Assembly: GCA_009392915.1 (NCBI GenBank)
Contig: CP045477.1
Coordinates: 672,001-736,000 of the forward strand
Source: Candidatus Forterrea multitransposorum CG_2015-17_Forterrea_25_41
GTDB taxonomy: Archaea; Iainarchaeota; Iainarchaeia; Iainarchaeales; CSSED10-239
Direction: 5' to 3'
Length of the DNA stretch: 64,000 bases
Shown: in pieces, positions 3,763 through 62,858 of the stretch
How the letters are laid out: the number at the start of each line of letters is the position of its first letter
How positions within the stretch are numbered: position 1 is the stretch's first letter
The notes under the pieces: model-generated
What the model was told of the DNA's origin: nothing
Database searches by the model: none
What the model saw: the letters and a program-made list of their open reading frames with translations, nothing else
Position numbers and translations under genes: made by a program

Positions 3763-5796
3763 ATGAACTATATTGAACTTGCAAGTAAAATTGAAGAAAG
3801 AAAAGCTATTGTTCCTGGACATAGAACTTGTCCTGGGTGTCCTATAGCCATTATCTTAAGAACAGCATATGCTGCAACTGATAAAAAAATAATAACATCA
3901 TCTGCTACATCCTGTGCAGAAGTTACAACAACAATTTATCCTTACACCTCATGGAATGAACCTTGGATTCATTCTGTTTTTGCAAATGCTGCAGCAACCA
4001 TATCTGGTGTTGAAACTGCTTATAGAGCTTTAAAGAAAAAAGGAAAGATAAAAGAAGAAATTAAATTTATGGCTTTTGCTGGAGATGGTGGAGCTTTTGA
4101 TATTGGACTTCAGAGCCTTTCAGGAGCTCTTGAAAGAGGACATGATTTTGTTTTTGTTTGTTACGATAACGAAGGTTACCAAAACTGTTTATCAATAGAT
4201 TCATTAATAATGACAGAAACAGGTCTTAAAAAAATAACTGAAATTAAAAAAGGAGAGAAAGTCTGGGCTTTTGATCAAAATAAACATTTGCCGGTACTAA
4301 AAGAATGTACAGGGGTCTTTAATAATGGAAGAAAAAGAGTATACGAAATAGAAACTATACATCAAAATATAAAAGCAACATCAAACCACCCATTCTTAAC
4401 TTTAAAAAGAAACGGTAGAGGAAAAGAAAACGAGCTTATCTGGAAAACAGTTTCTCAATTAAAGGTAAATGATGAAATTGTAACTATGAGAAAACTTTAT
4501 GATAAAGGAAAAGCATATGAATTTAATAAAATAAAGCTAACTAAAAAAGGCGATTATAAAGTAAATATTATTAATGATGTTAAGCTTCCAGAAAAATCTA
4601 CAAAAGAATTAATGTTATGGCTAGGTTTATATGTTGGAGATGGATGGATTAGAGAAGAAAGAGGAGAAATTGGATTTGCTCTTCCAGAAAATACAGAAGA
4701 GAGAAAAATACTTCTTAAGATCCATAAGAAAATATTTGGACAAGAAAATAAATCTAAAGATAAATATTACATATACTATAATTCTGTAAATATTTCAAAA
4801 TTTATTAATTCCTTAGGGTTTATGCAAGGTGCTAAAAATAAAACAATACCATCTTGGGTTTTTACTTTACCAATAGATCAAAAAGAAGAATTTGTAAAAG
4901 GTTTATTAATGTCTGATGGATATATTTATAAAAAGAAAAAAGATAGTTGTAGATATTTATCAGCAAGCAAAGAATTAATTAAAAGATTAAGACTTTTACT
5001 TCAAACAATGGATTACAGAGTAGGAAAAATAACTATTCAGAAAAAACCAAAAGGAACTTTTGTAGTTTATAGAGAAATGTTAAATGATGGAGAATACTAT
5101 AGTATTTGTTTTAGTAAAAAAGACAAATGGGATGTTAAAAAATACCCTAACCAATACAAATATCAAAATTATTTTATTGAAAATGAATATTTTGAAACAA
5201 GAAAAATAAAAAATATTATTCCTAGAGGAATTGAACAAACATTAGATTTAAGAGTTGATGGAGAACACAACTTTATTGCAGATGGAATTGTTGTTCATAA
5301 CACAGGAGCACAACGATCCTCTGCAACACCTTATGGAGCTTCAACAACTACCACTCCTGGAGAGAAAAAAGAATTTCAAAAAGATCTTGCAAGGATAGCT
5401 ATTGCTCATAAAATACCATATGTTGCAACTGCAAACCCAGGAAATCTTTTAGACATGCATGAAAAGTTTAGAAAGGCTTTTGAAAAGAAAGGGCCAGCTG
5501 TAATCATTGTTTATGCAGCATGCCCTACAAACATGAAGGCTCCTGAAGACTTAACTATTGATATTTCAAAGCTTGCAACTGAAACTAATTTTTGGCCACT
5601 TTATGAAGTTGAAGATGGAAAATATAAAGTAAACTATAAGCCTGCAAATAAAAAACCTATTGAAGAATTTTTAAAAATGCAAACTAAGTTTAAAGAAGTT
5701 TTAAAAGATAAAAATGAAATTAAAAAAATACAACAAGAAATAGATGATGATTTTAAAGAACTTCTAAAAATGGAAGAAGCTTTTCCTTTAAAATAA
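3763..5796 (+). CDS. porB: Pyruvate:ferredoxin oxidoreductase beta subunit (TPP-binding), interrupted by an in-frame intein.
   Basis: N-terminal 'CPGCP', then 'AFAGDGGAFDIG' and 'YDNEGYQN|C...HN|TGAQ'. The extein motif reconstitutes as DNEGYQNTGAQ, the TPP-binding loop. 677 aa against about 300 aa for a normal PorB. Confidence 0.85.
   Translation: MNYIELASKIEERKAIVPGHRTCPGCPIAIILRTAYAATDKKIITSSATSCAEVTTTIYPYTSWNEPWIHSVFANAAATISGVETAYRALKKKGKIKEEIKFMAFAGDGGAFDIGLQSLSGALERGHDFVFVCYDNEGYQNCLSIDSLIMTETGLKKITEIKKGEKVWAFDQNKHLPVLKECTGVFNNGRKRVYEIETIHQNIKATSNHPFLTLKRNGRGKENELIWKTVSQLKVNDEIVTMRKLYDKGKAYEFNKIKLTKKGDYKVNIINDVKLPEKSTKELMLWLGLYVGDGWIREERGEIGFALPENTEERKILLKIHKKIFGQENKSKDKYYIYYNSVNISKFINSLGFMQGAKNKTIPSWVFTLPIDQKEEFVKGLLMSDGYIYKKKKDSCRYLSASKELIKRLRLLLQTMDYRVGKITIQKKPKGTFVVYREMLNDGEYYSICFSKKDKWDVKKYPNQYKYQNYFIENEYFETRKIKNIIPRGIEQTLDLRVDGEHNFIADGIVVHNTGAQRSSATPYGASTTTTPGEKKEFQKDLARIAIAHKIPYVATANPGNLLDMHEKFRKAFEKKGPAVIIVYAACPTNMKAPEDLTIDISKLATETNFWPLYEVEDGKYKVNYKPANKKPIEEFLKMQTKFKEVLKDKNEIKKIQQEIDDDFKELLKMEEAFPLK
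4186..5301 (+). mobile_element. Intein with a LAGLIDADG homing endonuclease domain inside porB (372 aa).
   Basis: Begins 'CLSIDSLIMTETG' (block A) with a block B 'TSNHPF'. Two LAGLIDADG-like motifs, 'LGLYVGDGWI' and 'KGLLMSDGYI'. Ends '...GIVVHN' followed by extein Thr (HN|T). Confidence 0.8.
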
Positions 5797-12812: not shown

Positions 12813-12879
12813 ACATAATCACTTATAATATTAGCTATATTAATGTATAAATACTTTACTAATAATTAAAAAAATCATT

Positions 12880-14988
12880 ATGTGCTCAATAATTGGTTTT
12901 GTAAACTACAAAGAAACTAAAAAAGAAATAATCTCTGCGTTTAAAACTCTAGAAAAAAGAGGTCTTGATGGATATGGAGTTTTTTGTAATGATAAGTGTA
13001 GTTATTTTAAAGAGATTAAAGAGATAGAATCTAAAAACATCCCTGATGATGTTGTTTTTGGACACAACTTACTTTCTATAACAGGAAATGTTTCACAACC
13101 TATTATTATTGATAAAAAAGTACTTTTATCTAATTGTGAAATATATAATTACAAAGAACTTTCTTCAAAATACAAAATAGATTCAAAAAATGATTCTGAT
13201 TTTTTACTTAAAGCAATAATAAAGATTGGAAAAAAAATATTTACTGAAATTAATGGACCTTATGCTATATGTTATTATGATGGCAGAGAAATTTATTTAA
13301 GAAGAGATTTATTAGGGATAAAGCCTTTATGGTATTCAATAGAAAAAAAATCATTTGGGTTTGCTTCAGAAAAGAAAGTTTTAGAAAATGCAGGTTTTAA
13401 AAAAATTGAATTTTTAGATCCTAGAAAAGAACTTTCTTATAATGTTTTAAAAAATAAAATTAGTTTTAAACAAATACCATTCTTTAAAATAGAAAAAAAA
13501 CAAACAACAAAAGAAAAAGTATATGAAAAACTAAAAAATGCAATTTTTAAAAGAGCATCTGGAAAACAAAAAATTGCTCTTTTATATAGTTCAGGAATAG
13601 ATTCTTTAGTTATTGCAAAAATTTTAAAAGATAATAAAATTCCTTTTAAAGGGTACTTTGCATATTCTCAAGATATTTTAAACCCTAAAGATCTTTCAAA
13701 TGTTTTAAGAACAGAAAAAGAATATGGTTTTTCTATTGAAAAGATTAAAATTTCTAAAACAGAAATTGAAAAAACATTACCTTTACTTATAGAGAGAGTA
13801 GAGTCATCAAACCCTATAAAAATTGGTGTGTCCTTACCTATATACTTTGCTTCAAAAAAAGCAAGAAAAGATGGTTGTAAAGTTATTCTTTCAGGACTAG
13901 GATCTGATGAAATTTTTGCAGGATATTCAAGATTTAAAGAATCAACTAATCTTTTAAAAGATACTTTAAACCTTTTATACCAAATGCATGAAAATGATCT
14001 TTATAGAGAAGATGTGGTTTGTACAAATAATAACATAGAAGCAAGATTTCCATATCTTGATAAAGAAGTTATTGAAGAATCTTTTTGCCTTACAGACAAA
14101 CAAAAAATTAATAATGAAGAAAATAAAGTAATCTTAAGAGAGATTGGAAAAGAAATTGGTCTTTTAAAAGAAGATTACAAGAGGAAAAAAACAGCAGCAC
14201 AATACGGAAGTGGATTTGATAAAATGATTGAAAAAATAGCAAAAGAAAATAATGTTAAACAAAAAGGAGAATTTCTTAAAAAACTTTCAAAAAAAGAAAA
14301 CCTTACTTTAGGATGTCTTTTCTCAGGTGGAAAAGATTCAAACCTTGCATACCACATTATGGCAAGACAAAATTATAAGATTGCATGCTTAATGACAATG
14401 GTCACTGAAAACCCAGATTCTTATATGTTTCAAAAAATTGATGAAAAAATACTTTCTCTTCAATCCAAAGCATTAGAAGTGCCTTTTGTTTTTCAAAAAA
14501 CAAAAGGAATTAAAGAAGAAGAACTTAAAGACCTTAAAAGATTACTTTTCAAAGCAAAAGAAAAATATTCTCTTCAAGGAATAATTACTGGTGCTATAAA
14601 AAGTAATTATCAAAGAGAAAGAATACAAGATGTTTGTAATGAACTTGGTTTAAGAATGTTTTCTCCTCTTTGGAACAAAACACAAGAAGGTGTTTTAAAA
14701 GAACTTTTAGATGATGACTACCAAGTAATGATTGTAAAAATTGCAGGACAAGGACTTTCTGAAAATTGGCTTGGAAAAGTTTTAACTAAAGAAGACGTCA
14801 TTAACTTAAAAATAATTAATAAAAAGAAAGGAATTAATGTTGCAGGAGAAGGAGGAGAATATGAAAGTATTGTTCTTGATGCTCCACTTTATAAGCAAAA
14901 AATAGTAATCACAAGTGCAAACCCAATTATGGAAAATGAAATCACTGGTTATTTAGATATTTTAAAATTAGGTTTAGAAGAAAAATGA
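12880..14988 (+). CDS. Asparagine synthetase (glutamine-hydrolysing) fused to a C-terminal MJ0570/Dph6-like PP-loop ATPase (diphthine-ammonia ligase-like) domain.
   Basis: Ntn glutaminase 'MCSIIGF...NGEIYNY-like...RDLLGIKPLWY'. AsnB PP-loop 'LYSSGIDSLVIA' and 'RFPYLDKEV...AAQYGSGFDK'. Second PP-loop 'LGCLFSGGKDSNLAYH...AIKSNYQRERIQDVCNELGL...SPLW' in the C-terminal 230 aa. Confidence 0.7.
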   Translation: MCSIIGFVNYKETKKEIISAFKTLEKRGLDGYGVFCNDKCSYFKEIKEIESKNIPDDVVFGHNLLSITGNVSQPIIIDKKVLLSNCEIYNYKELSSKYKIDSKNDSDFLLKAIIKIGKKIFTEINGPYAICYYDGREIYLRRDLLGIKPLWYSIEKKSFGFASEKKVLENAGFKKIEFLDPRKELSYNVLKNKISFKQIPFFKIEKKQTTKEKVYEKLKNAIFKRASGKQKIALLYSSGIDSLVIAKILKDNKIPFKGYFAYSQDILNPKDLSNVLRTEKEYGFSIEKIKISKTEIEKTLPLLIERVESSNPIKIGVSLPIYFASKKARKDGCKVILSGLGSDEIFAGYSRFKESTNLLKDTLNLLYQMHENDLYREDVVCTNNNIEARFPYLDKEVIEESFCLTDKQKINNEENKVILREIGKEIGLLKEDYKRKKTAAQYGSGFDKMIEKIAKENNVKQKGEFLKKLSKKENLTLGCLFSGGKDSNLAYHIMARQNYKIACLMTMVTENPDSYMFQKIDEKILSLQSKALEVPFVFQKTKGIKEEELKDLKRLLFKAKEKYSLQGIITGAIKSNYQRERIQDVCNELGLRMFSPLWNKTQEGVLKELLDDDYQVMIVKIAGQGLSENWLGKVLTKEDVINLKIINKKKGINVAGEGGEYESIVLDAPLYKQKIVITSANPIMENEITGYLDILKLGLEEK

Positions 14989-15010
14989 TTGTTTTTTTAA
15001 AAGAGAACAA

Positions 15011-55202: not shown

Positions 55203-56311
55203 ATTGTGTTGCATAACTCTTTTTAAAAGTATTGTCTAACCTATTTTATTACTAGATAAAGGAGGTTAGACAATATGAATATTAAGAACGAAAAGATTAA
55301 TAAAAGGAACTGGTCAAAGATAAATTATGGAAAAACAAGACAAATCTTGTTTTTACTAGATAAAAACATTATTTTTAGTGAAAATGAAAGACTAGTTTCC
55401 CAAAATAAAAACAAACCAGGAAGACAATTTATATATAGTGATAGAATAATAGAACTATTAATTGATCTTAAAAATTATTTTAAATTTGATTATCGTAAAC
55501 TACAGGCATTCTGCCTGTTGTTTAATAATGTTATAAAAATAAAAACACCTGACTTTACAACTATTTGTAGAAGAATGCACAAATTAGAATTATTTCTAAA
55601 AAATATAAAAACAAAAAAAGAACCAACCTTTATAGCTATAGATGGTTCTGGACTTCAAACTACTAATCGAGGAGAATGGCTTAGATTAATACACAAAAAA
55701 GGAAAAATAAACTTAAGAAATGGATTTGTAAAATTAGTGATTGCAACAGATGTTGCATCTGGAGAAATAACTGGAGTGTATATTTCAGATGATTCTGATT
55801 TTGAAAATAAAAGCTTATCAGATTTATTATACCAAACAATAAATAATCAAAACCAAGAAGTCAAAGGACTTCTTGGAGATGGGGCATACGATTCTTATGA
55901 TAACTTTGATATGCTTGATGATATGGGAATAAAACCAATTATCAAAATCAGAAAGAATGCAATTACAACAGAACCTAATGACGATTATTTAAAAAGAAGA
56001 AGAAAACTTGGAAAAAAGAAAAAAATAAAAAGAATTGAAGTTGCAAAAAAGCAACTTAAAAATGTAGATGACTGGAAACAAAAAAATGAGTATAATAAAA
56101 GGTGGGTTGTTGAATACACGTTTAGTGTATTCAAAAGACTATTCGGACATAGTGTGTACTCTAAAAGAAAGAAATATGTCAAAAATGAAGTAATTTCTAA
56201 AGTAAATTTGTATAATAAATTATTAAATATCAATTAAGAAAAAAATAAAATGAATTAAAAAAAGAAATAAGCTAAAAATATTGTGTAAAACACAATATTT
56301 GTGCAACACAA
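55203..56311 (+). mobile_element. Insertion sequence (IS4/IS5-superfamily) with imperfect terminal inverted repeats, flanked by 26-bp direct repeats.
   Basis: IRL 'attgtgttgcataa' (55203..) and IRR 'ttgtgcaacacaat' (..56311). The direct repeat 'ttttaaaaaaaaagaaagaaaacaaa' sits at 55177..55202 and 56312..56337. Confidence 0.7.
55275..56237 (+). CDS. DDE transposase (IS4/IS5 family).
   Basis: 'IAIDGSG' (D), 'LLGDGAYDSYDN' (D) and 'YNKRWVVEYTFSVFK' (Y-x2-R-x3-E-x6-K). Confidence 0.75.
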   Translation: MNIKNEKINKRNWSKINYGKTRQILFLLDKNIIFSENERLVSQNKNKPGRQFIYSDRIIELLIDLKNYFKFDYRKLQAFCLLFNNVIKIKTPDFTTICRRMHKLELFLKNIKTKKEPTFIAIDGSGLQTTNRGEWLRLIHKKGKINLRNGFVKLVIATDVASGEITGVYISDDSDFENKSLSDLLYQTINNQNQEVKGLLGDGAYDSYDNFDMLDDMGIKPIIKIRKNAITTEPNDDYLKRRRKLGKKKKIKRIEVAKKQLKNVDDWKQKNEYNKRWVVEYTFSVFKRLFGHSVYSKRKKYVKNEVISKVNLYNKLLNIN

Positions 56312-57653: not shown

Positions 57654-60600
57654 TTAAACAGGGATTTGTACTCTTACAATTACAACTCCAGAACCACCTG
57701 AAAGACCTCTTGTACCACTACCAGAAGCTTTTCCATCCCCACCATTACCAGTATTTGGAGCACCTGCAGAACCACTATTTTCACGAGAATTACCTCCTGC
57801 AGCATAAATTACATTTGATCCAGTTATGTCATTTGAGGTACCAGGTCCTCCTACACCATATCCAGGAGGAGATGCCCAACAACTACCAGAACCTCCAGAA
57901 CCAGTACCACCTCTATTTTGAGGAGGACAAGCATAATTTGTAGAAGATGATCCTCCAGAACCTCCAGATGCTATTGTTCCATTAAAGAAAGAATACCCAC
58001 CTGCAGTTCCTGCTGTATTATAAGATCCACCAGATCCACCAGATCCCACTACAACATCATAAGTGTCAGCAGAACTGGATACAAGTCCATAATATCTATA
58101 TTGGCCGGCATTTCCACCATTACCATTATAACCACCACCACCACCACCACCGCCGACGACTAAGTATTCTAACATATACATTGGGAAGTCTATATTTATA
58201 GTGTAAGTTCCAGTACCACTTCTAAATTTATGAACACGGTATGCATAACCTCCTGAAATTCCCTCGGTTACTGTTGCTGTACCTGTGTGAGTAGTAATTA
58301 TTTTTCTAACCTTTAAAGTGTAGGTTGCAGAGGTTGCACCTTGTGTAACATTAACAGTAATTGTTTTTAAATTACCATCAGAAATGCTTATAGGGCTTGA
58401 TGCTGATCCAGATGAAACAGTTGAACCATTTACAGTTATTGTTCCAGTACCAGTAGGAGTTACAGTAATACTGTTAGTTGTACTAATTAAATAAAAAATA
58501 TCATTATAATTATATGTATTTGAATTAAAAGCAAATCCAGAAGGATTATTACTTAATTCTAAATTTGAAAGACCAGCAGGAATTGTTACGTTTATACTGC
58601 TTTGACTTCCCCAACAACCGTTTGTAGATCTTGCTCTAAAATAATAGGTGCCATTAGAATTTACTGTTTGAGGAGTGCCTCCTAAAGAGGTACTAGTACC
58701 CATTGATGTAGTTCCTTGGAAATATATAGTTCCACCTGAACCACCAGTTGCAGAAATGGTTGCAAACCCAGGACCACTATTTTGAAGAGATATACTTACA
58801 CTTCCTGGTTGAGAAAGTATAGTTGCAGTAACTGGAACTCTTGTTGTTAAATTACAAGTTCCGCCTGTCACTCCTACATAATAAGTTGTTGTCCAATTTA
58901 GAAGTGGAGTTGTAAAACTATTTCCTGTTGCAATTGGAGAACCACCAGTTGATGAAGTATACCATTCAATAGTTCCGCTTGTTGTAGTTGCACCTAAAGT
59001 TACAGAACCATTACCACATCTTTCTCCAGGAGTAACATTTACTGTTGGTGGAGATGCAATAGTCACTGTTTTTGAAACACAACTTGTTGTATTACAAGTA
59101 CCTGAAAGTCTTGCATAATAAGTTGTAGTTGAGGTTGGACTTACAGTTAAACTTGAAGAAGATCCTAATGAAATTGCAGTCCCACAAGTTCCAGCATACC
59201 ATTGATATGTAGCACCAGTTCCAACAGTTCCACCTATTGCAGTTAAAGTAGTTGGAGATCCAGAACATACACTTGTATTTCCAGTAATTGAGGTTGGAGC
59301 AACTGAAGGTGTATTAAATGAAACAGTTGCACTTCCTTGAGTACCCCAAGTACCAGAAGTAGATCTTGCTCTAAAATAATAAGTTCCAGGACTTGAAACA
59401 ACTTCTGATGTTGAAGCATTCATTGTACTGGTACCATTAGAAGTTGTGCCTTGATAATAAATTGTTCCATTAGCACCACCAGTTGCAGTTAAAGTTGCAT
59501 TAGCATTACAAGTTGCCCCACCACCTAAAACAGTTACTGGATCAGGAGTTATATCTACATTATAATAACCTTGAACTAAATCACTTGAAGTCCATCCTGT
59601 TTTATAAGCAATTGCTTTTAATGGAGTTGGAGAGTTAATTAAAACACTTTCTCCATGATTAATAACATTTACTCCACCTTGAACAGGTGTAGAGTTGTCT
59701 AAAGTATAACTGATTTGTGCTCCAGGCACAGAAGTAATAACTACATTTTGTGCAGTTGAATAAGTTCCAGGTAAAGGACTAAAGGTTGGTGAATTTAGTT
59801 TAAAAGTATAATCTGCTTGAGAAACAGAACTTTCAAGATAACCAGACTTGTAAACTATTGCTTTTAAAGTTTGATTTCTGGTTACAGGGATTGAAGTTCC
59901 GAGATATTGAGTTGAACTTGATGTTGGAGTATCACCATTGGTTGTGTAATAAATACTATAAGGAAGAGGAGTTGTAGTTGATAGATCTACAAAAATATTA
60001 TTATTGTATGTTCCTGAAGGACTTGAGAAAGTAGCAGGATTTGCAATTAATTGAACAGTGAAAGTTTGTGTGGCAACAGGACTGGTTGAATAACCAAAAG
60101 CATAACAAACTGCTTTTAAAGTTGTAGTGGATGTAAAATTAATTGGAGAAGAATAAACTGTTCCATCATCTCTTGTTGGATCAGTTCCATCAGTTGTATA
60201 TCTTATGGTGCTTGAAGGTGTGGAACAACTTAAAGTAACATTAACACTATTTGTGTGGGTTCCACCGTTTGGTGAAAAGGTAGGAGTTGCAGCAGGAGCA
60301 TTTATAGTGTAAACACCAGTTGAAACATCACTTGAAGTCCAACCTGTTTTGTAAGTGATTGCACGTAAAGTAGAGGTTGAAGTGATTGGAACAGTTGACT
60401 CTCCACTATTGATTTGTGTACCAGTTGTCTGTGTTGGAGTTGCTCCATTTATAGTGTATCTGATTTGGGCACCAGCAACAGAAGTTATTGCTACAGATTG
60501 AGAATCTGAATATGCACCAGGAGAAGGACTAAAGGTTGGTGCATTTAATTTGAAGACATAATCTGCTTGAGTGACAGAACTTGCAAGATAACCAGGCTTA

Positions 60601-62858
60601 TAAACAATTGCTTTTAAAGTTTGATTTCTGGTTACAGGGATTGAAGTTCCGAGATATTGAGTTGAACTTGAAGTTGGAGTATCTCCATTTGTTGTATAAT
60701 AAATACTATAAGGAAGAGGAGTTGTGGTTGATAGGTCGACAAAAATATTATTATTGTATGTTCCTGAAGGACTTGAGAAAGTAGCAGGACTTGCAATTAA
60801 TTGAACAGTGAAAGTTTGTGTAGCAACAGGACTGGTTGAATAACCAGAAGCATAACAAACTGCTTTTAAAGTTGTAGTGGATGTAAAATTAATTGGAGAA
60901 GAATAAACTGTTCCATCCTCTCTTGTTGGATCAGTTCCATCAGTTGTATATCTTATGGTGCTTGAAGGGGTTGTACAACTTAAAGTTACATTAACACTAT
61001 TTGTAAAAGTACCACCGTTTGGACTAAAGGCAGGAGTTGCAGCAGGAGCATTAATAGTATAAACACCAGTTGAAACATCACTTGAAGTCCAACCTGTTTT
61101 GTAAGTGATTGCACGTAAAGTAGAGGTTGAAGTGATTGGAACAGTTGACTCTCCACTATTGATTTGTGTACCAGTTGTCTGTGTTGGAGTTGCTCCATTT
61201 ATAGTGTATCTGATTTGGGCACCAGCAACAGAAGTTATTGCTACAGATTGAGAATCTGAATATGCACCAGGAGAAGGACTAAAGGTTGGTGCATTTAATT
61301 TGAAGACATAATCTGCTTGAGTGACAGAACTTGCAAGATAACCAGGCTTATAAACAATTGCTTTTAAAGTTTGATTTCTGGTTACAGGGATTGAAGTTCC
61401 GAGATATTGAGTTGAACTTGAAGTTGGAGTATCTCCATTTGTTGTATAATAAATACTATAAGGAAGAGGAGTTGTAGTTGATAAATCAACAAAAATATTA
61501 TTATTATAAGTTCCTGAAGGAAGAGAAAAGATTGCAATATTAGCAGGAAGAGTAACATTATAATCTGCTTGAGATATTGGACCGGTATTTGAACCTACAG
61601 CTGCCATTGCCTTAATAGTTACAGGAGATGATATGTTAATTGGACTTGAATAAACTGGACTTAAAAGAGTAGGATCAAAACCACTTGTGGTATAATGAAT
61701 AGTTGCACCAGGATTTGAATTACTTAAAGTAATATTTTGTATTGTAGAATAATCTCCTGCAGGAGGATTAAAAATAATAGGATCTAAAGGTACAAAGAAA
61801 CTATAAGTAAAAGTTGAAACTGAACTATCATTATAATTTTCTCTACAAGCAATTGCTTTTATGGTAGAGTCTGCAGAAACATTTATTGGAGAAGTATATT
61901 CTGAAAAGCTACCTGAACAATCAGGAATAGAAGAATCTAAAGTATAATAAATAGTTGAAGAAGAGGTTGCACTTGAAAGAACAACATTAATTGGATCTTC
62001 TAAATTTATAGAACTATCAGGAGTTGCAGTTACTGAAGATACAGTATCATAAGAAACTGTGTAAGTTCCAGAAGCAATTCCAGATTTAACACTGTTATAT
62101 TCAGAATATGCCATAATAGTTGTTCCAGGACTAATTGAAATAGGAAGCCCTAAAGTATAAGGTATACCGCTAGTATAAGGATCACTACCATCTATTGTAT
62201 AATAAACAGAAAAACTTGGATCAGATACATCTAAAGTTATAGTTGATGGAAAAGAAAAATAATTATAAGAACCAGGAACAGGATTAAATAATGGTCTTGA
62301 AATCACTGTTGTTTTAGGACCACTATCAGACCAATTAAAAGAATATCTAGAAGATTTTTTGGATTGATTATTTTTTGAAACTTCTATAGATAAATAATAA
62401 GAATCTCCACAAGAACCATTACCTAAATCAATATCTGAAACAATTAAATTATTTGTAATAATTGGATTTAAGTTATCTTCGGGAATAATATTCCCATCTA
62501 AAATAACAGTGTAATCTCCCTCATTTAAAACATCATTATCTTTATTTTCAATAATTAATTTATAAGTACCCTCTCTCGATAAAGGTTTCCAAGAAAAAGA
62601 TAAAAGCCCAATTTTTCTTAAAGTTCCACCTACATCAATAGTTTCACAATCTAAATAATTAGCTTTAACAGAAGTTATTGTTGGAGGTAAAGGACCATCA
62701 GTTGAAGAAGAAACATCATCAACTTGTTCTGATGCTGAATCTCTTGATTGACCACCTAGAGAAACTAAAATAGTTACAATAATTACAGCAACTAATACAC
62801 CACCACCAATCAATATTAAAGTTTCTAAATTACCTTGACCTTTTTTTGATGGTAGCAT
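57654..62858 (-). CDS. Giant (1734 aa) pilin-like surface adhesin: class III signal peptide, the conserved family N-domain, about 13 chitobiase/hexosaminidase-C-like Ig-type repeats, a Cys-containing beta region and a glycine-rich C-terminal domain.
   Basis: N-terminus 'KKGQGNLETLILIGGGVLVAVIIVTILV...SLGGQSRDSASEQ...VKANYLDC'. Repeats with 'IYYTTNGDTPT...TLKAI' signatures. C-terminus 'GGGGGGGYNGNGGNAGQYRYYG...GSGGSGGS'. Confidence 0.7.
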   Translation of the reverse strand: MLPSKKGQGNLETLILIGGGVLVAVIIVTILVSLGGQSRDSASEQVDDVSSSTDGPLPPTITSVKANYLDCETIDVGGTLRKIGLLSFSWKPLSREGTYKLIIENKDNDVLNEGDYTVILDGNIIPEDNLNPIITNNLIVSDIDLGNGSCGDSYYLSIEVSKNNQSKKSSRYSFNWSDSGPKTTVISRPLFNPVPGSYNYFSFPSTITLDVSDPSFSVYYTIDGSDPYTSGIPYTLGLPISISPGTTIMAYSEYNSVKSGIASGTYTVSYDTVSSVTATPDSSINLEDPINVVLSSATSSSTIYYTLDSSIPDCSGSFSEYTSPINVSADSTIKAIACRENYNDSSVSTFTYSFFVPLDPIIFNPPAGDYSTIQNITLSNSNPGATIHYTTSGFDPTLLSPVYSSPINISSPVTIKAMAAVGSNTGPISQADYNVTLPANIAIFSLPSGTYNNNIFVDLSTTTPLPYSIYYTTNGDTPTSSSTQYLGTSIPVTRNQTLKAIVYKPGYLASSVTQADYVFKLNAPTFSPSPGAYSDSQSVAITSVAGAQIRYTINGATPTQTTGTQINSGESTVPITSTSTLRAITYKTGWTSSDVSTGVYTINAPAATPAFSPNGGTFTNSVNVTLSCTTPSSTIRYTTDGTDPTREDGTVYSSPINFTSTTTLKAVCYASGYSTSPVATQTFTVQLIASPATFSSPSGTYNNNIFVDLSTTTPLPYSIYYTTNGDTPTSSSTQYLGTSIPVTRNQTLKAIVYKPGYLASSVTQADYVFKLNAPTFSPSPGAYSDSQSVAITSVAGAQIRYTINGATPTQTTGTQINSGESTVPITSTSTLRAITYKTGWTSSDVSTGVYTINAPAATPTFSPNGGTHTNSVNVTLSCSTPSSTIRYTTDGTDPTRDDGTVYSSPINFTSTTTLKAVCYAFGYSTSPVATQTFTVQLIANPATFSSPSGTYNNNIFVDLSTTTPLPYSIYYTTNGDTPTSSSTQYLGTSIPVTRNQTLKAIVYKSGYLESSVSQADYTFKLNSPTFSPLPGTYSTAQNVVITSVPGAQISYTLDNSTPVQGGVNVINHGESVLINSPTPLKAIAYKTGWTSSDLVQGYYNVDITPDPVTVLGGGATCNANATLTATGGANGTIYYQGTTSNGTSTMNASTSEVVSSPGTYYFRARSTSGTWGTQGSATVSFNTPSVAPTSITGNTSVCSGSPTTLTAIGGTVGTGATYQWYAGTCGTAISLGSSSSLTVSPTSTTTYYARLSGTCNTTSCVSKTVTIASPPTVNVTPGERCGNGSVTLGATTTSGTIEWYTSSTGGSPIATGNSFTTPLLNWTTTYYVGVTGGTCNLTTRVPVTATILSQPGSVSISLQNSGPGFATISATGGSGGTIYFQGTTSMGTSTSLGGTPQTVNSNGTYYFRARSTNGCWGSQSSINVTIPAGLSNLELSNNPSGFAFNSNTYNYNDIFYLISTTNSITVTPTGTGTITVNGSTVSSGSASSPISISDGNLKTITVNVTQGATSATYTLKVRKIITTHTGTATVTEGISGGYAYRVHKFRSGTGTYTINIDFPMYMLEYLVVGGGGGGGGYNGNGGNAGQYRYYGLVSSSADTYDVVVGSGGSGGSYNTAGTAGGYSFFNGTIASGGSGGSSSTNYACPPQNRGGTGSGGSGSCWASPPGYGVGGPGTSNDITGSNVIYAAGGNSRENSGSAGAPNTGNGGDGKASGSGTRGLSGGSGVVIVRVQIPV
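59545..61500. repeat. About 740-bp tandem direct repeat (2.6 copies, the last two nearly identical) inside the giant adhesin gene.
   Basis: 60284..60723 and 61024..61470 are near-identical by eye. 59745..60283 is a slightly diverged copy. Each unit encodes three Ig-like domains (about 247 aa). Confidence 0.8.

Follow-up and report, generated by a model that had tools for sequence, protein, structure and literature searches.

The stretch of DNA analysed here, called the window throughout, comprises 64,000 nucleotides (nt) of contig CP045477.1 from Candidatus Forterrea multitransposorum. At positions 12880–14988 it carries a gene for a 702-residue protein in which three domains follow one another: a class-II glutamine amidotransferase (GAT-II), a PP-loop domain resembling that of the asparagine synthetase AsnB, and a second PP-loop domain of the Dph6 (diphthine--ammonia ligase) type. 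The fusion is a real and widely conserved archaeal gene. On sequence comparison we lean, with some reserve, towards reading the three-domain protein as a diphthamide synthetase, probably dependent on glutamine, that belongs to a DPANN-like archaeon with a small genome. The features on which this reading draws are as follows.

12880–14988, plus strand: complete open reading frame of 702 residues plus stop, encoding the GAT-II / AsnB-like PP-loop / Dph6 fusion; ATG at 12880, TGA at 14986–14988, no interruption.
12880–13479, plus strand: class-II (Ntn) glutamine amidotransferase domain, residues 1–200, assigned from Pfam GATase_6/7, family conservation and mapping to E. coli AsnB and human asparagine synthetase (ASNS).
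12883–12885, plus strand: codon of the Cys2 nucleophile, from residue mapping.
13492–14289, plus strand: AsnB-type synthetase-like PP-loop domain, residues 205–470, assigned from Pfam Asn_synthase and a Foldseek match to 1ct9 with a template-modelling (TM) score of 0.78 on the target.
13588–13605, plus strand: PP-loop 1, S237-S-G-I-D-S242, with S237, G239, D241 and S242 invariant in 119 homologues.
13897–13899, plus strand: codon of Leu340, aligned with the catalytic Glu (E. coli E348, human E364).
14290–14307, plus strand: short fixed-length junction between the PP-loop domains, residues 471–476; N474 is 98% conserved, and the AlphaFold2 predicted local distance difference test score (pLDDT) is about 90.
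14308–14985, plus strand: Dph6 domain (diphthine--ammonia ligase, DUF71/MJ0570-type), residues 477–702, assigned from TIGR03679, alignment to PF0828 and Foldseek.
14323–14340, plus strand: PP-loop 2, S482-G-G-K-D-S487, with S482, G484, K485 and D486 invariant in the 119 homologues.

The domain assignments are borne out by curated families. Pfam places GATase_7 at residues 72–169 (6.5e-19), Asn_synthase at 214–357 (6.4e-35) and Diphthami_syn_2 (PF01902) at 479–696 (1.8e-56; 191.6 bits against a cutoff of 23.2). In NCBIfam, TIGR03679 (Dph6_archaeal) covers residues 479–694 with 235.8 bits, above its trusted cutoff of 197.3. An earlier note on this DNA, made from the letters alone, had named a class-II glutaminase, an AsnB-type PP-loop domain and a PP-loop domain of the MJ0570/Dph6 family at the C-terminus; these calls were correct, and the two PP-loops, SSGIDS at 237–242 and SGGKDS at 482–487, are indeed distinct elements of one polypeptide. 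The AlphaFold2 model of the fusion (mean pLDDT 92.8; predicted TM score 0.88) has no low-confidence linker and predicts that the three domains form one rigid body.

The fusion is not peculiar to one assembly. The identical 702-residue protein was read on at least 24 contigs (87 index blocks) of up to 0.84 Mb, including JGI 3300007985 and NCBI GCA_009993835.1. It also recurs in relatives, where the same note had thought it worth seeking: a search of 5.8 billion proteins gave 119 full-length homologues (660–740 residues, 40–77% identity), each with all three domains, and in 118 of them the stretch between positions 466 and 480 has the same length. NCBI names this protein, and many of the homologues, diphthine--ammonia ligase; the homologues so named come from Woesearchaeota, Nanoarchaeota, Diapherotrites/Iainarchaeota and bins labelled only ‘archaeon’.

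The C-terminal domain is the most readily identified of the three. It aligns with P. furiosus PF0828 (3rjz; 2.1e-51) and P. horikoshii PH1257 (4.7e-48), and in a Foldseek comparison its model (pLDDT 92.8) overlies 3rk1 and 2d13 with TM scores of 0.92–0.96 on the target and root-mean-square deviations of 1.3–1.6 Å. In PF0828, the residues S44, Y45, E78, Y103, Q104, A149, E183, E186 and E188, which lie at the modelled interface with EF-2, are specific to the Dph6 subfamily and separate it from the DUF71 subfamily engaged in B12 salvage (PMC3541065). All have their equivalents here, namely S514, Y515, E548, Y577, Q578, A622, E657, E660 and E662; each of these nine is kept in at least 103 of the 119 homologues, and most in 117–119. 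Such agreement strongly supports the domain as an orthologue of archaeal Dph6.

For the N-terminal 470 residues, positions were mapped by profile alignment to E. coli AsnB and human ASNS, and conservation was counted over the 119 full-length homologues. The glutaminase machinery is largely preserved. The nucleophile C2 (equivalent to Cys1) is present in 117 homologues; the R-G-x-D motif (R27, G28 and D30, equivalent to R30-G-P-D in AsnB) is nearly invariant; the oxyanion residue N85 occurs in 119 and E87 in 118 (human N74 and E76); and D105, which binds the amino group of glutamine (human D96), and R389 (human R416) occur in all 119. Between N85 and E87, the position of human G75 is taken by Cys86. 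In human ASNS, a network of R142, D405, E414, N74 and E76 forms the gate of the ammonia tunnel (PMC11615228). Its counterparts at the level of sequence are K148 (117/119), D378 (119/119) and E387 (118/119) together with N85 and E87, each at least 98% conserved, and it is likely that the glutaminase is active and the tunnel intact.

The central domain has kept a fold and changed its active site. Foldseek matches the N-terminal 470 residues to both E. coli AsnB and human ASNS with target TM scores of 0.74–0.78, which strongly supports an AsnB fold for the modelled structure, although the ~80–100 C-terminal residues of AsnB are missing and Dph6 takes their place directly. PP-loop 1 is conserved, with Gly at residue 238 in 113 of the 119 homologues and Ser in the window protein. 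The catalytic lysine K437 (human K466, AsnB K449) is invariant, as is K416, a conserved lysine that has no mapped equivalent in ASNS, and the substrate pocket retains D373 (116/119) and R376 (119/119), equivalent to human D400 and R403. As the PP-loop and the lysine are invariant, the domain presumably still binds ATP. The position of the Glu that is essential for the synthetase (human E364, E. coli E348) is, however, occupied by Leu340 in 117 of the 119, and Gly316 stands where ASNS has the Arg of its TT(I/V)R motif (human R339). In ASNS, E364 contacts the α-carboxylate of aspartate in the acyl-adenylate, and both E364A and E364Q are inactive (PMC6748925). The hallmarks of the family are instead S338-G-L340-G-S-D-E344 and R435-K-K437-x-A-A-Q-Y-G-S.

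Because the essential Glu and two Arg residues (the second is the glutamine-binding Arg, invariantly Leu, considered further below) have been replaced, this domain is very unlikely to make asparagine. The curated models agree: the asparagine synthase family TIGR01536 scores 245 bits, below its cutoff of 267.1, and PRK09431 scores 190.3, below its cutoff of 499; NF033535 is also among the NCBIfam matches. A canonical asparagine synthetase is ruled out by these cutoffs and replacements, and the label ‘asparagine synthetase’ in the earlier note must be dropped. For annotation, the name diphthine--ammonia ligase is reasonable, and the N-terminal 470 residues should not be counted as asparagine biosynthesis in metabolic reconstructions of DPANN archaea.

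Taken together, these features allow a mechanism to be outlined for a glutamine-dependent diphthamide synthetase. The Dph6 domain would adenylate the carboxylate of diphthine on EF-2 and amidate it to diphthamide. Cys2 of the Ntn-glutaminase would set ammonia free from an amide donor, of which glutamine is the likeliest; this ammonia would cross the AsnB-type gate formed by K148, D378, E387, N85 and E87 into the AsnB-like PP-loop domain, and would then be passed on to the diphthine-AMP intermediate at the Dph6 site. The ATP-bound AsnB-like domain may serve as the coupling and channel module, or may have another catalytic role. A channel from glutaminase to Dph6 is plausible, since the nucleophile is intact, the tunnel gate is conserved and the junction is predicted to be rigid and is constant in length. 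An informational role, in translation, would also fit better than amino-acid biosynthesis, because genome-reduced DPANN archaea keep this protein of some 700 residues.

Several observations weigh against this reading. Yeast Dph6 reportedly (Su et al. 2012) needs only ATP and ammonium, so the chemistry has no need of another PP-loop domain, and the preferred reading does not account for the domain being so strictly conserved. Any through-route linking the AsnB-like site with that of Dph6 is hypothetical. Neither dph2 nor dph5 nor a gene for EF-2 is present within the 64-kb window. Archaeal Dph6 itself was still awaiting experimental confirmation as of 2021 (PMC8305020). The amide donor is uncertain as well. 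Arg-48 of human ASNS is listed in the substrate-recognition network (PMC6748925); the Arg that binds the α-carboxylate of glutamine (human R48, E. coli R49) is Leu64 in all 119 homologues, and the adjoining residue, His in 109 of them, is also Leu in the window protein. With both positions occupied by Leu, the donor may be something other than free glutamine.

The remaining objections come from relatives in which the glutaminase is dead or gone. A profile of the N-terminal 470 residues was scanned against one genome per GTDB species, and each locus was analysed with separate hidden Markov models (HMMs), one covering the N-terminal part and the other Dph6. Two adjacent gene pairs in Methanococcoides (L021, 3794–6207, from a cultured strain; L046, 3503–5768) encode the AsnB-like protein and Dph6 separately, split exactly at the domain boundary, with gaps of ~15 nt and 1 nt. 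Their glutaminase is catalytically dead (the start reads MGR instead of MCG, a Cys-to-Gly change, and NCE has become DTD), and the PP-loop domain is intact. One fused protein (L027) has degenerate glutaminase motifs, and two others (L049, 3914–5383; L065, 3839–5431) join the AsnB-like PP-loop to Dph6 with no glutaminase at all. The pairing of the AsnB-like domain with Dph6 thus outlasts loss or inactivation of the glutaminase, and the fusion is not explicable by ammonia supply alone.

The same pattern emerges from a wider set. Searched on its own with HMMER against 1.84 billion representatives at 50% identity, the PP-loop domain matched 174 clusters at E<=1e-30, and on this representative library an HMM for the glutaminase alone was used alongside the other two. 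Architectures were counted for the best 150 of the 174 clusters; three (P0007, P0009 and P0092) were set aside as already in the set, leaving 147 classified as follows.

GAT-AsnS-Dph6: 35 of 147 representative clusters.
AsnS-Dph6, no glutaminase: 14 of 147.
AsnS alone: 45 of 147.
GAT-AsnS: 53 of 147, an unreliable count, since sampled members reach or nearly reach contig ends.

The 14 clusters without glutaminase add to the evidence against a role confined to ammonia supply; their fusion proteins span 458–531 residues, with representatives P0136, P0152, P0155, P0160, P0162, P0166, P0180, P0182, P0207, P0220 and P0230. In the three GAT-AsnS members sampled, the gene runs to the contig end (P0145, P0148) or stops 21 nt short of one (P0128), and many of the 53 are probably cut fusions or have an unseen downstream gene. 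Proteins consisting of the AsnB-like PP-loop domain alone, of 270–320 residues, also occur in the clade of the window protein. In the subclade that lacks the glutaminase, the glutaminase-coupling residues D378 and R389 are variable, and the PP-loop, K416/R420, R435/K437 and Q441/Y442 are kept. One glutaminase-less solo gene (P0134) overlaps the start of dph6 by ATGA; among the GTDB loci and sampled representatives, the other solo genes mostly have no adjacent dph6. Since relatives keep the pairing when the glutaminase has been lost or has died, or when the genes have split, it is the AsnB-like PP-loop domain, and not the glutaminase, that constantly accompanies Dph6.

In the GTDB species genomes, full three-domain fusions are found in Iainarchaeota, Woesearchaeota, Nanoarchaeota, Altiarchaeota, Nanosalina, several Methanosarcinales (Methanolobus and others) and one metagenome-assembled genome (MAG) of the Halobacteriota. 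A neighbour-joining tree of the PP-loop domain groups the window protein with the fusions of Methanosarcinales and Nanosalina. Bacterial matches in the scan are canonical, with H-x-R-L, NGE and T-G-E-G-A-D-E; in the archaeal relatives the Glu is gone from all and the Arg from nearly all, and most carry the RKKxAAQYG motif. A separate clade consists of stand-alone archaeal AsnB-like proteins with Gln at the position of the essential Glu, most of them also without the glutamine-binding Arg. It includes proteins from Methanobacteriaceae (L018, L020, L022, L028), Methanocella (L024), Methanoperedens (L047), ANME-1 (L025, L026, L031, L066) and Bathyarchaeota (L041, L053), which are unlikely to be canonical asparagine synthetases.

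The neighbourhoods of glutaminase-less solo genes (HerA-like ATPases, DUF371, SDR and cytidylyltransferase genes) gave no consistent functional signal. In three related loci (L050, 3098–3511; L051, 4811–5215; L074, 4842–5255), a DUF371 (PF04027) gene lies 10–700 nt downstream of such a solo AsnB-like gene on the same strand. In an Altiarchaeota MAG (L038, 1834–4166), a HisF-like (His_biosynth) gene runs into the start of an AsnB-like gene that has no glutaminase part and belongs to the other archaeal clade, and dph6 follows directly in convergent orientation; the HisF-like pairing is reminiscent of sugar acetamidino-transferase systems.

The gene could instead encode a bifunctional enzyme, which we consider somewhat unlikely. 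Its GAT-II/AsnB-like half would amidate a substrate of its own, either aspartate or another carboxylate (protein-, tRNA- or sugar-bound); the Dph6 half would separately amidate diphthine with free or shared ammonia, and the fusion would reflect only co-expression or the sharing of ammonia. The near-invariance of PP-loop 1, K416, K437, D373 and R376 does suggest a working adenylating site, the tunnel gate leads to the AsnB-like site as it does in AsnB, and many AsnB-like relatives are solo (45 of the 147 representatives), most without dph6 nearby. An independent second amidation was also left as a possibility by the authors of the first report on such fusions, in 2012, and by their reviewer (PMC3541065). 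Against this, all of the archaeal subfamily has Leu or Gln where ASNS has its indispensable Glu, which makes asparagine synthesis unlikely. DPANN archaea generally lack amino-acid biosynthesis. The junction of fixed length and the predicted rigid body suit independent halves poorly, and the association with Dph6, as a fusion, as split neighbours or as overlapping genes, turns up repeatedly in different phyla, also where the glutaminase is missing, which implies more than co-expression.

Alternatively, the AsnB-like domain, which defines an archaeal subfamily with the RKKxAAQYGS motif and with Leu or Gln where the catalytic Glu would stand, might be a second archaeal component of diphthamide synthesis or install a further modification on EF-2. 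This is unlikely in our view; if true, Dph6 would depend on the domain as a partner that uses ATP, whether a glutaminase is present or not, and the persistence of the pairing after glutaminase loss would be explained. In the narrower and more doubtful version, the AsnB-like PP-loop catalyses, or is indispensable as a subunit to, one more ATP-dependent reaction on EF-2, and the glutaminase is an optional addition. The glutaminase-less AsnS-Dph6 clusters (e.g. L049 and L065), the dead-glutaminase versions adjoining dph6 in Methanococcoides, the overlap of P0134 with dph6, and the drift of D378 and R389 in a clade that holds on to its other active-site residues all point this way. However, diphthine has only one carboxylate, yeast Dph6 reportedly suffices in vitro, many archaea, such as Pyrococcus, have a stand-alone Dph6, and most solo AsnB-like genes do not adjoin dph6.

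The weakest alternative, raised in the earlier note, is a frameshift near 14280 that joins two genes: A-rich homopolymer runs do lie at 14279–14296 and two-gene split versions occur in other lineages, but this artefact is ruled out for practical purposes by the identical reading frame on contigs from independent assemblies, the shared architecture and constant junction length of the homologues, and the high pLDDT of the junction.

The genomic setting of the gene is as follows. The window is very AT-rich (GC 0.18–0.36), and archaeal informational genes lie in it, for Topo VI A and B, MCM, aIF-1A, aIF-2 beta, Rio kinase and a KH protein. The fusion gene is solitary: the hypothetical gene on its upstream side is transcribed away from it and the downstream genes towards it, and no second copy of Dph6 or of the AsnB-like domain lies within the 64 kb. 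Two flanking elements are suggested by the sequence.

12846–12853, plus strand, 27 nt 5' of the ATG: TATAAATA, a candidate archaeal TATA box, implying a leaderless or short-leader transcript.
14989–14998, plus strand, directly 3' of the stop codon: T-rich run TTGTTTTTTT, a candidate archaeal terminator.

Elsewhere in the window, a gene at 3763–5796 (plus strand) encodes the thiamine pyrophosphate (TPP)-binding subunit of a pyruvate/2-oxoacid:ferredoxin oxidoreductase (677 residues) that harbours an intein with a LAGLIDADG homing-endonuclease domain (Pfam TPP_enzyme_C, Intein_splicing and LAGLIDADG_3). At 57654–62858 (minus strand) lies an unannotated reading frame of 1734 residues, where, alone in the window, GC is clearly raised (0.35–0.36, as against 0.18–0.30 elsewhere); it could be a foreign gene or a surface-protein gene. 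A DDE transposase gene occupies 55275–56237 (plus strand). On contig L084 (6545–11541), which has its upstream genes in common with the window, the transposase is followed by genes for bAvd and a reverse transcriptase, resembling a diversity-generating retroelement, and there is a HicAB pair; bAvd, reverse transcriptase and HicAB are apparently missing from the window at the transposase site. This difference suggests that the region after the transposase is variable and mobile.

Diphthamide is a conserved modification of EF-2 that protects translational fidelity. The last step of its synthesis has never been reconstituted for any archaeon, and the identity of the archaeal nitrogen donor is at stake. 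To find out whether glutamine is the donor for archaea in this step, nature offers no better material than this family of fusions.

The architecture itself, and the interpretation favoured here, are not new; both have been known since 2012. De Crécy-Lagard et al. (Biol Direct 7:32; PMC3541065) described AsnB-DUF71 fusions in Methanohalophilus mahii, Methanosalsum zhilinae and ‘Ca. Nanosalinarum’ and proposed that glutamine hydrolysis supplies them with NH3; a reviewer of that paper wanted to know which of the PP-loops consumes the ammonia and what purpose the AsnB-like one serves, a question that the family can address. A literature search for later work on the AsnB-DUF71 fusion found only that paper. 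The fusions of 2012 have the same order of domains as the window protein (GAT-II, Asn_synthase PP-loop, DUF71/Dph6), which differs in coming from a low-GC DPANN-like lineage and in sharing 30–42% identity with them in the AsnB-like part. Whereas the 2012 paper treated the AsnB part as an asparagine synthetase, the catalytic Glu and Arg residues are here found replaced across the family. What is added, then, is that the AsnB-like half is not an asparagine synthetase, as far as its residues tell, that the glutaminase is optional, and that the pairing of the two PP-loop domains is the conserved core.

Among better-known systems, stand-alone archaeal Dph6 proteins (PF0828, PDB 3RJZ, 3RK0 and 3RK1; PH1257, PDB 2D13) resemble the C-terminal 226 residues of the fusion, with ~40% identity, the same fold, and the SGGKDS PP-loop, GEGGE[FY]E motif and Y-Q pair in common. 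They are single-domain enzymes of ~225 residues, whereas the fusion has an AsnB-type accessory module at its N-terminus. Yeast Dph6 (YLR143W) also carries accessory domains, but these are two RidA-like domains at the C-terminus. With E. coli AsnB (1CT9) and human ASNS (6GQ3 and 8SUE) the fusion shares the two-domain fold (TM 0.74–0.78 on the target), the Cys1 nucleophile, N74/E76, D96/98, the PP-loop, K449/K466, D400/R403 and the tunnel-gate network; it departs from them in having Leu for R48/49, Cys for G75, Leu for E348/E364 and Gly for R339, and in the exchange of the C-terminal 80–100 residues for Dph6. Other members of the AsnB superfamily with a repurposed synthetase site are β-lactam synthetase, carbapenam synthetase, the hydroxyamidotransferase TsnB9 and the lasso-peptide cyclases, which have the same fold and make no asparagine, some of them with a degenerate glutaminase domain (Foldseek 1mbz, 1q19 and 7ylz; NF033535). 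Their identity to the fusion is 13–17%, and in contrast to it none of them is joined to a second PP-loop enzyme.

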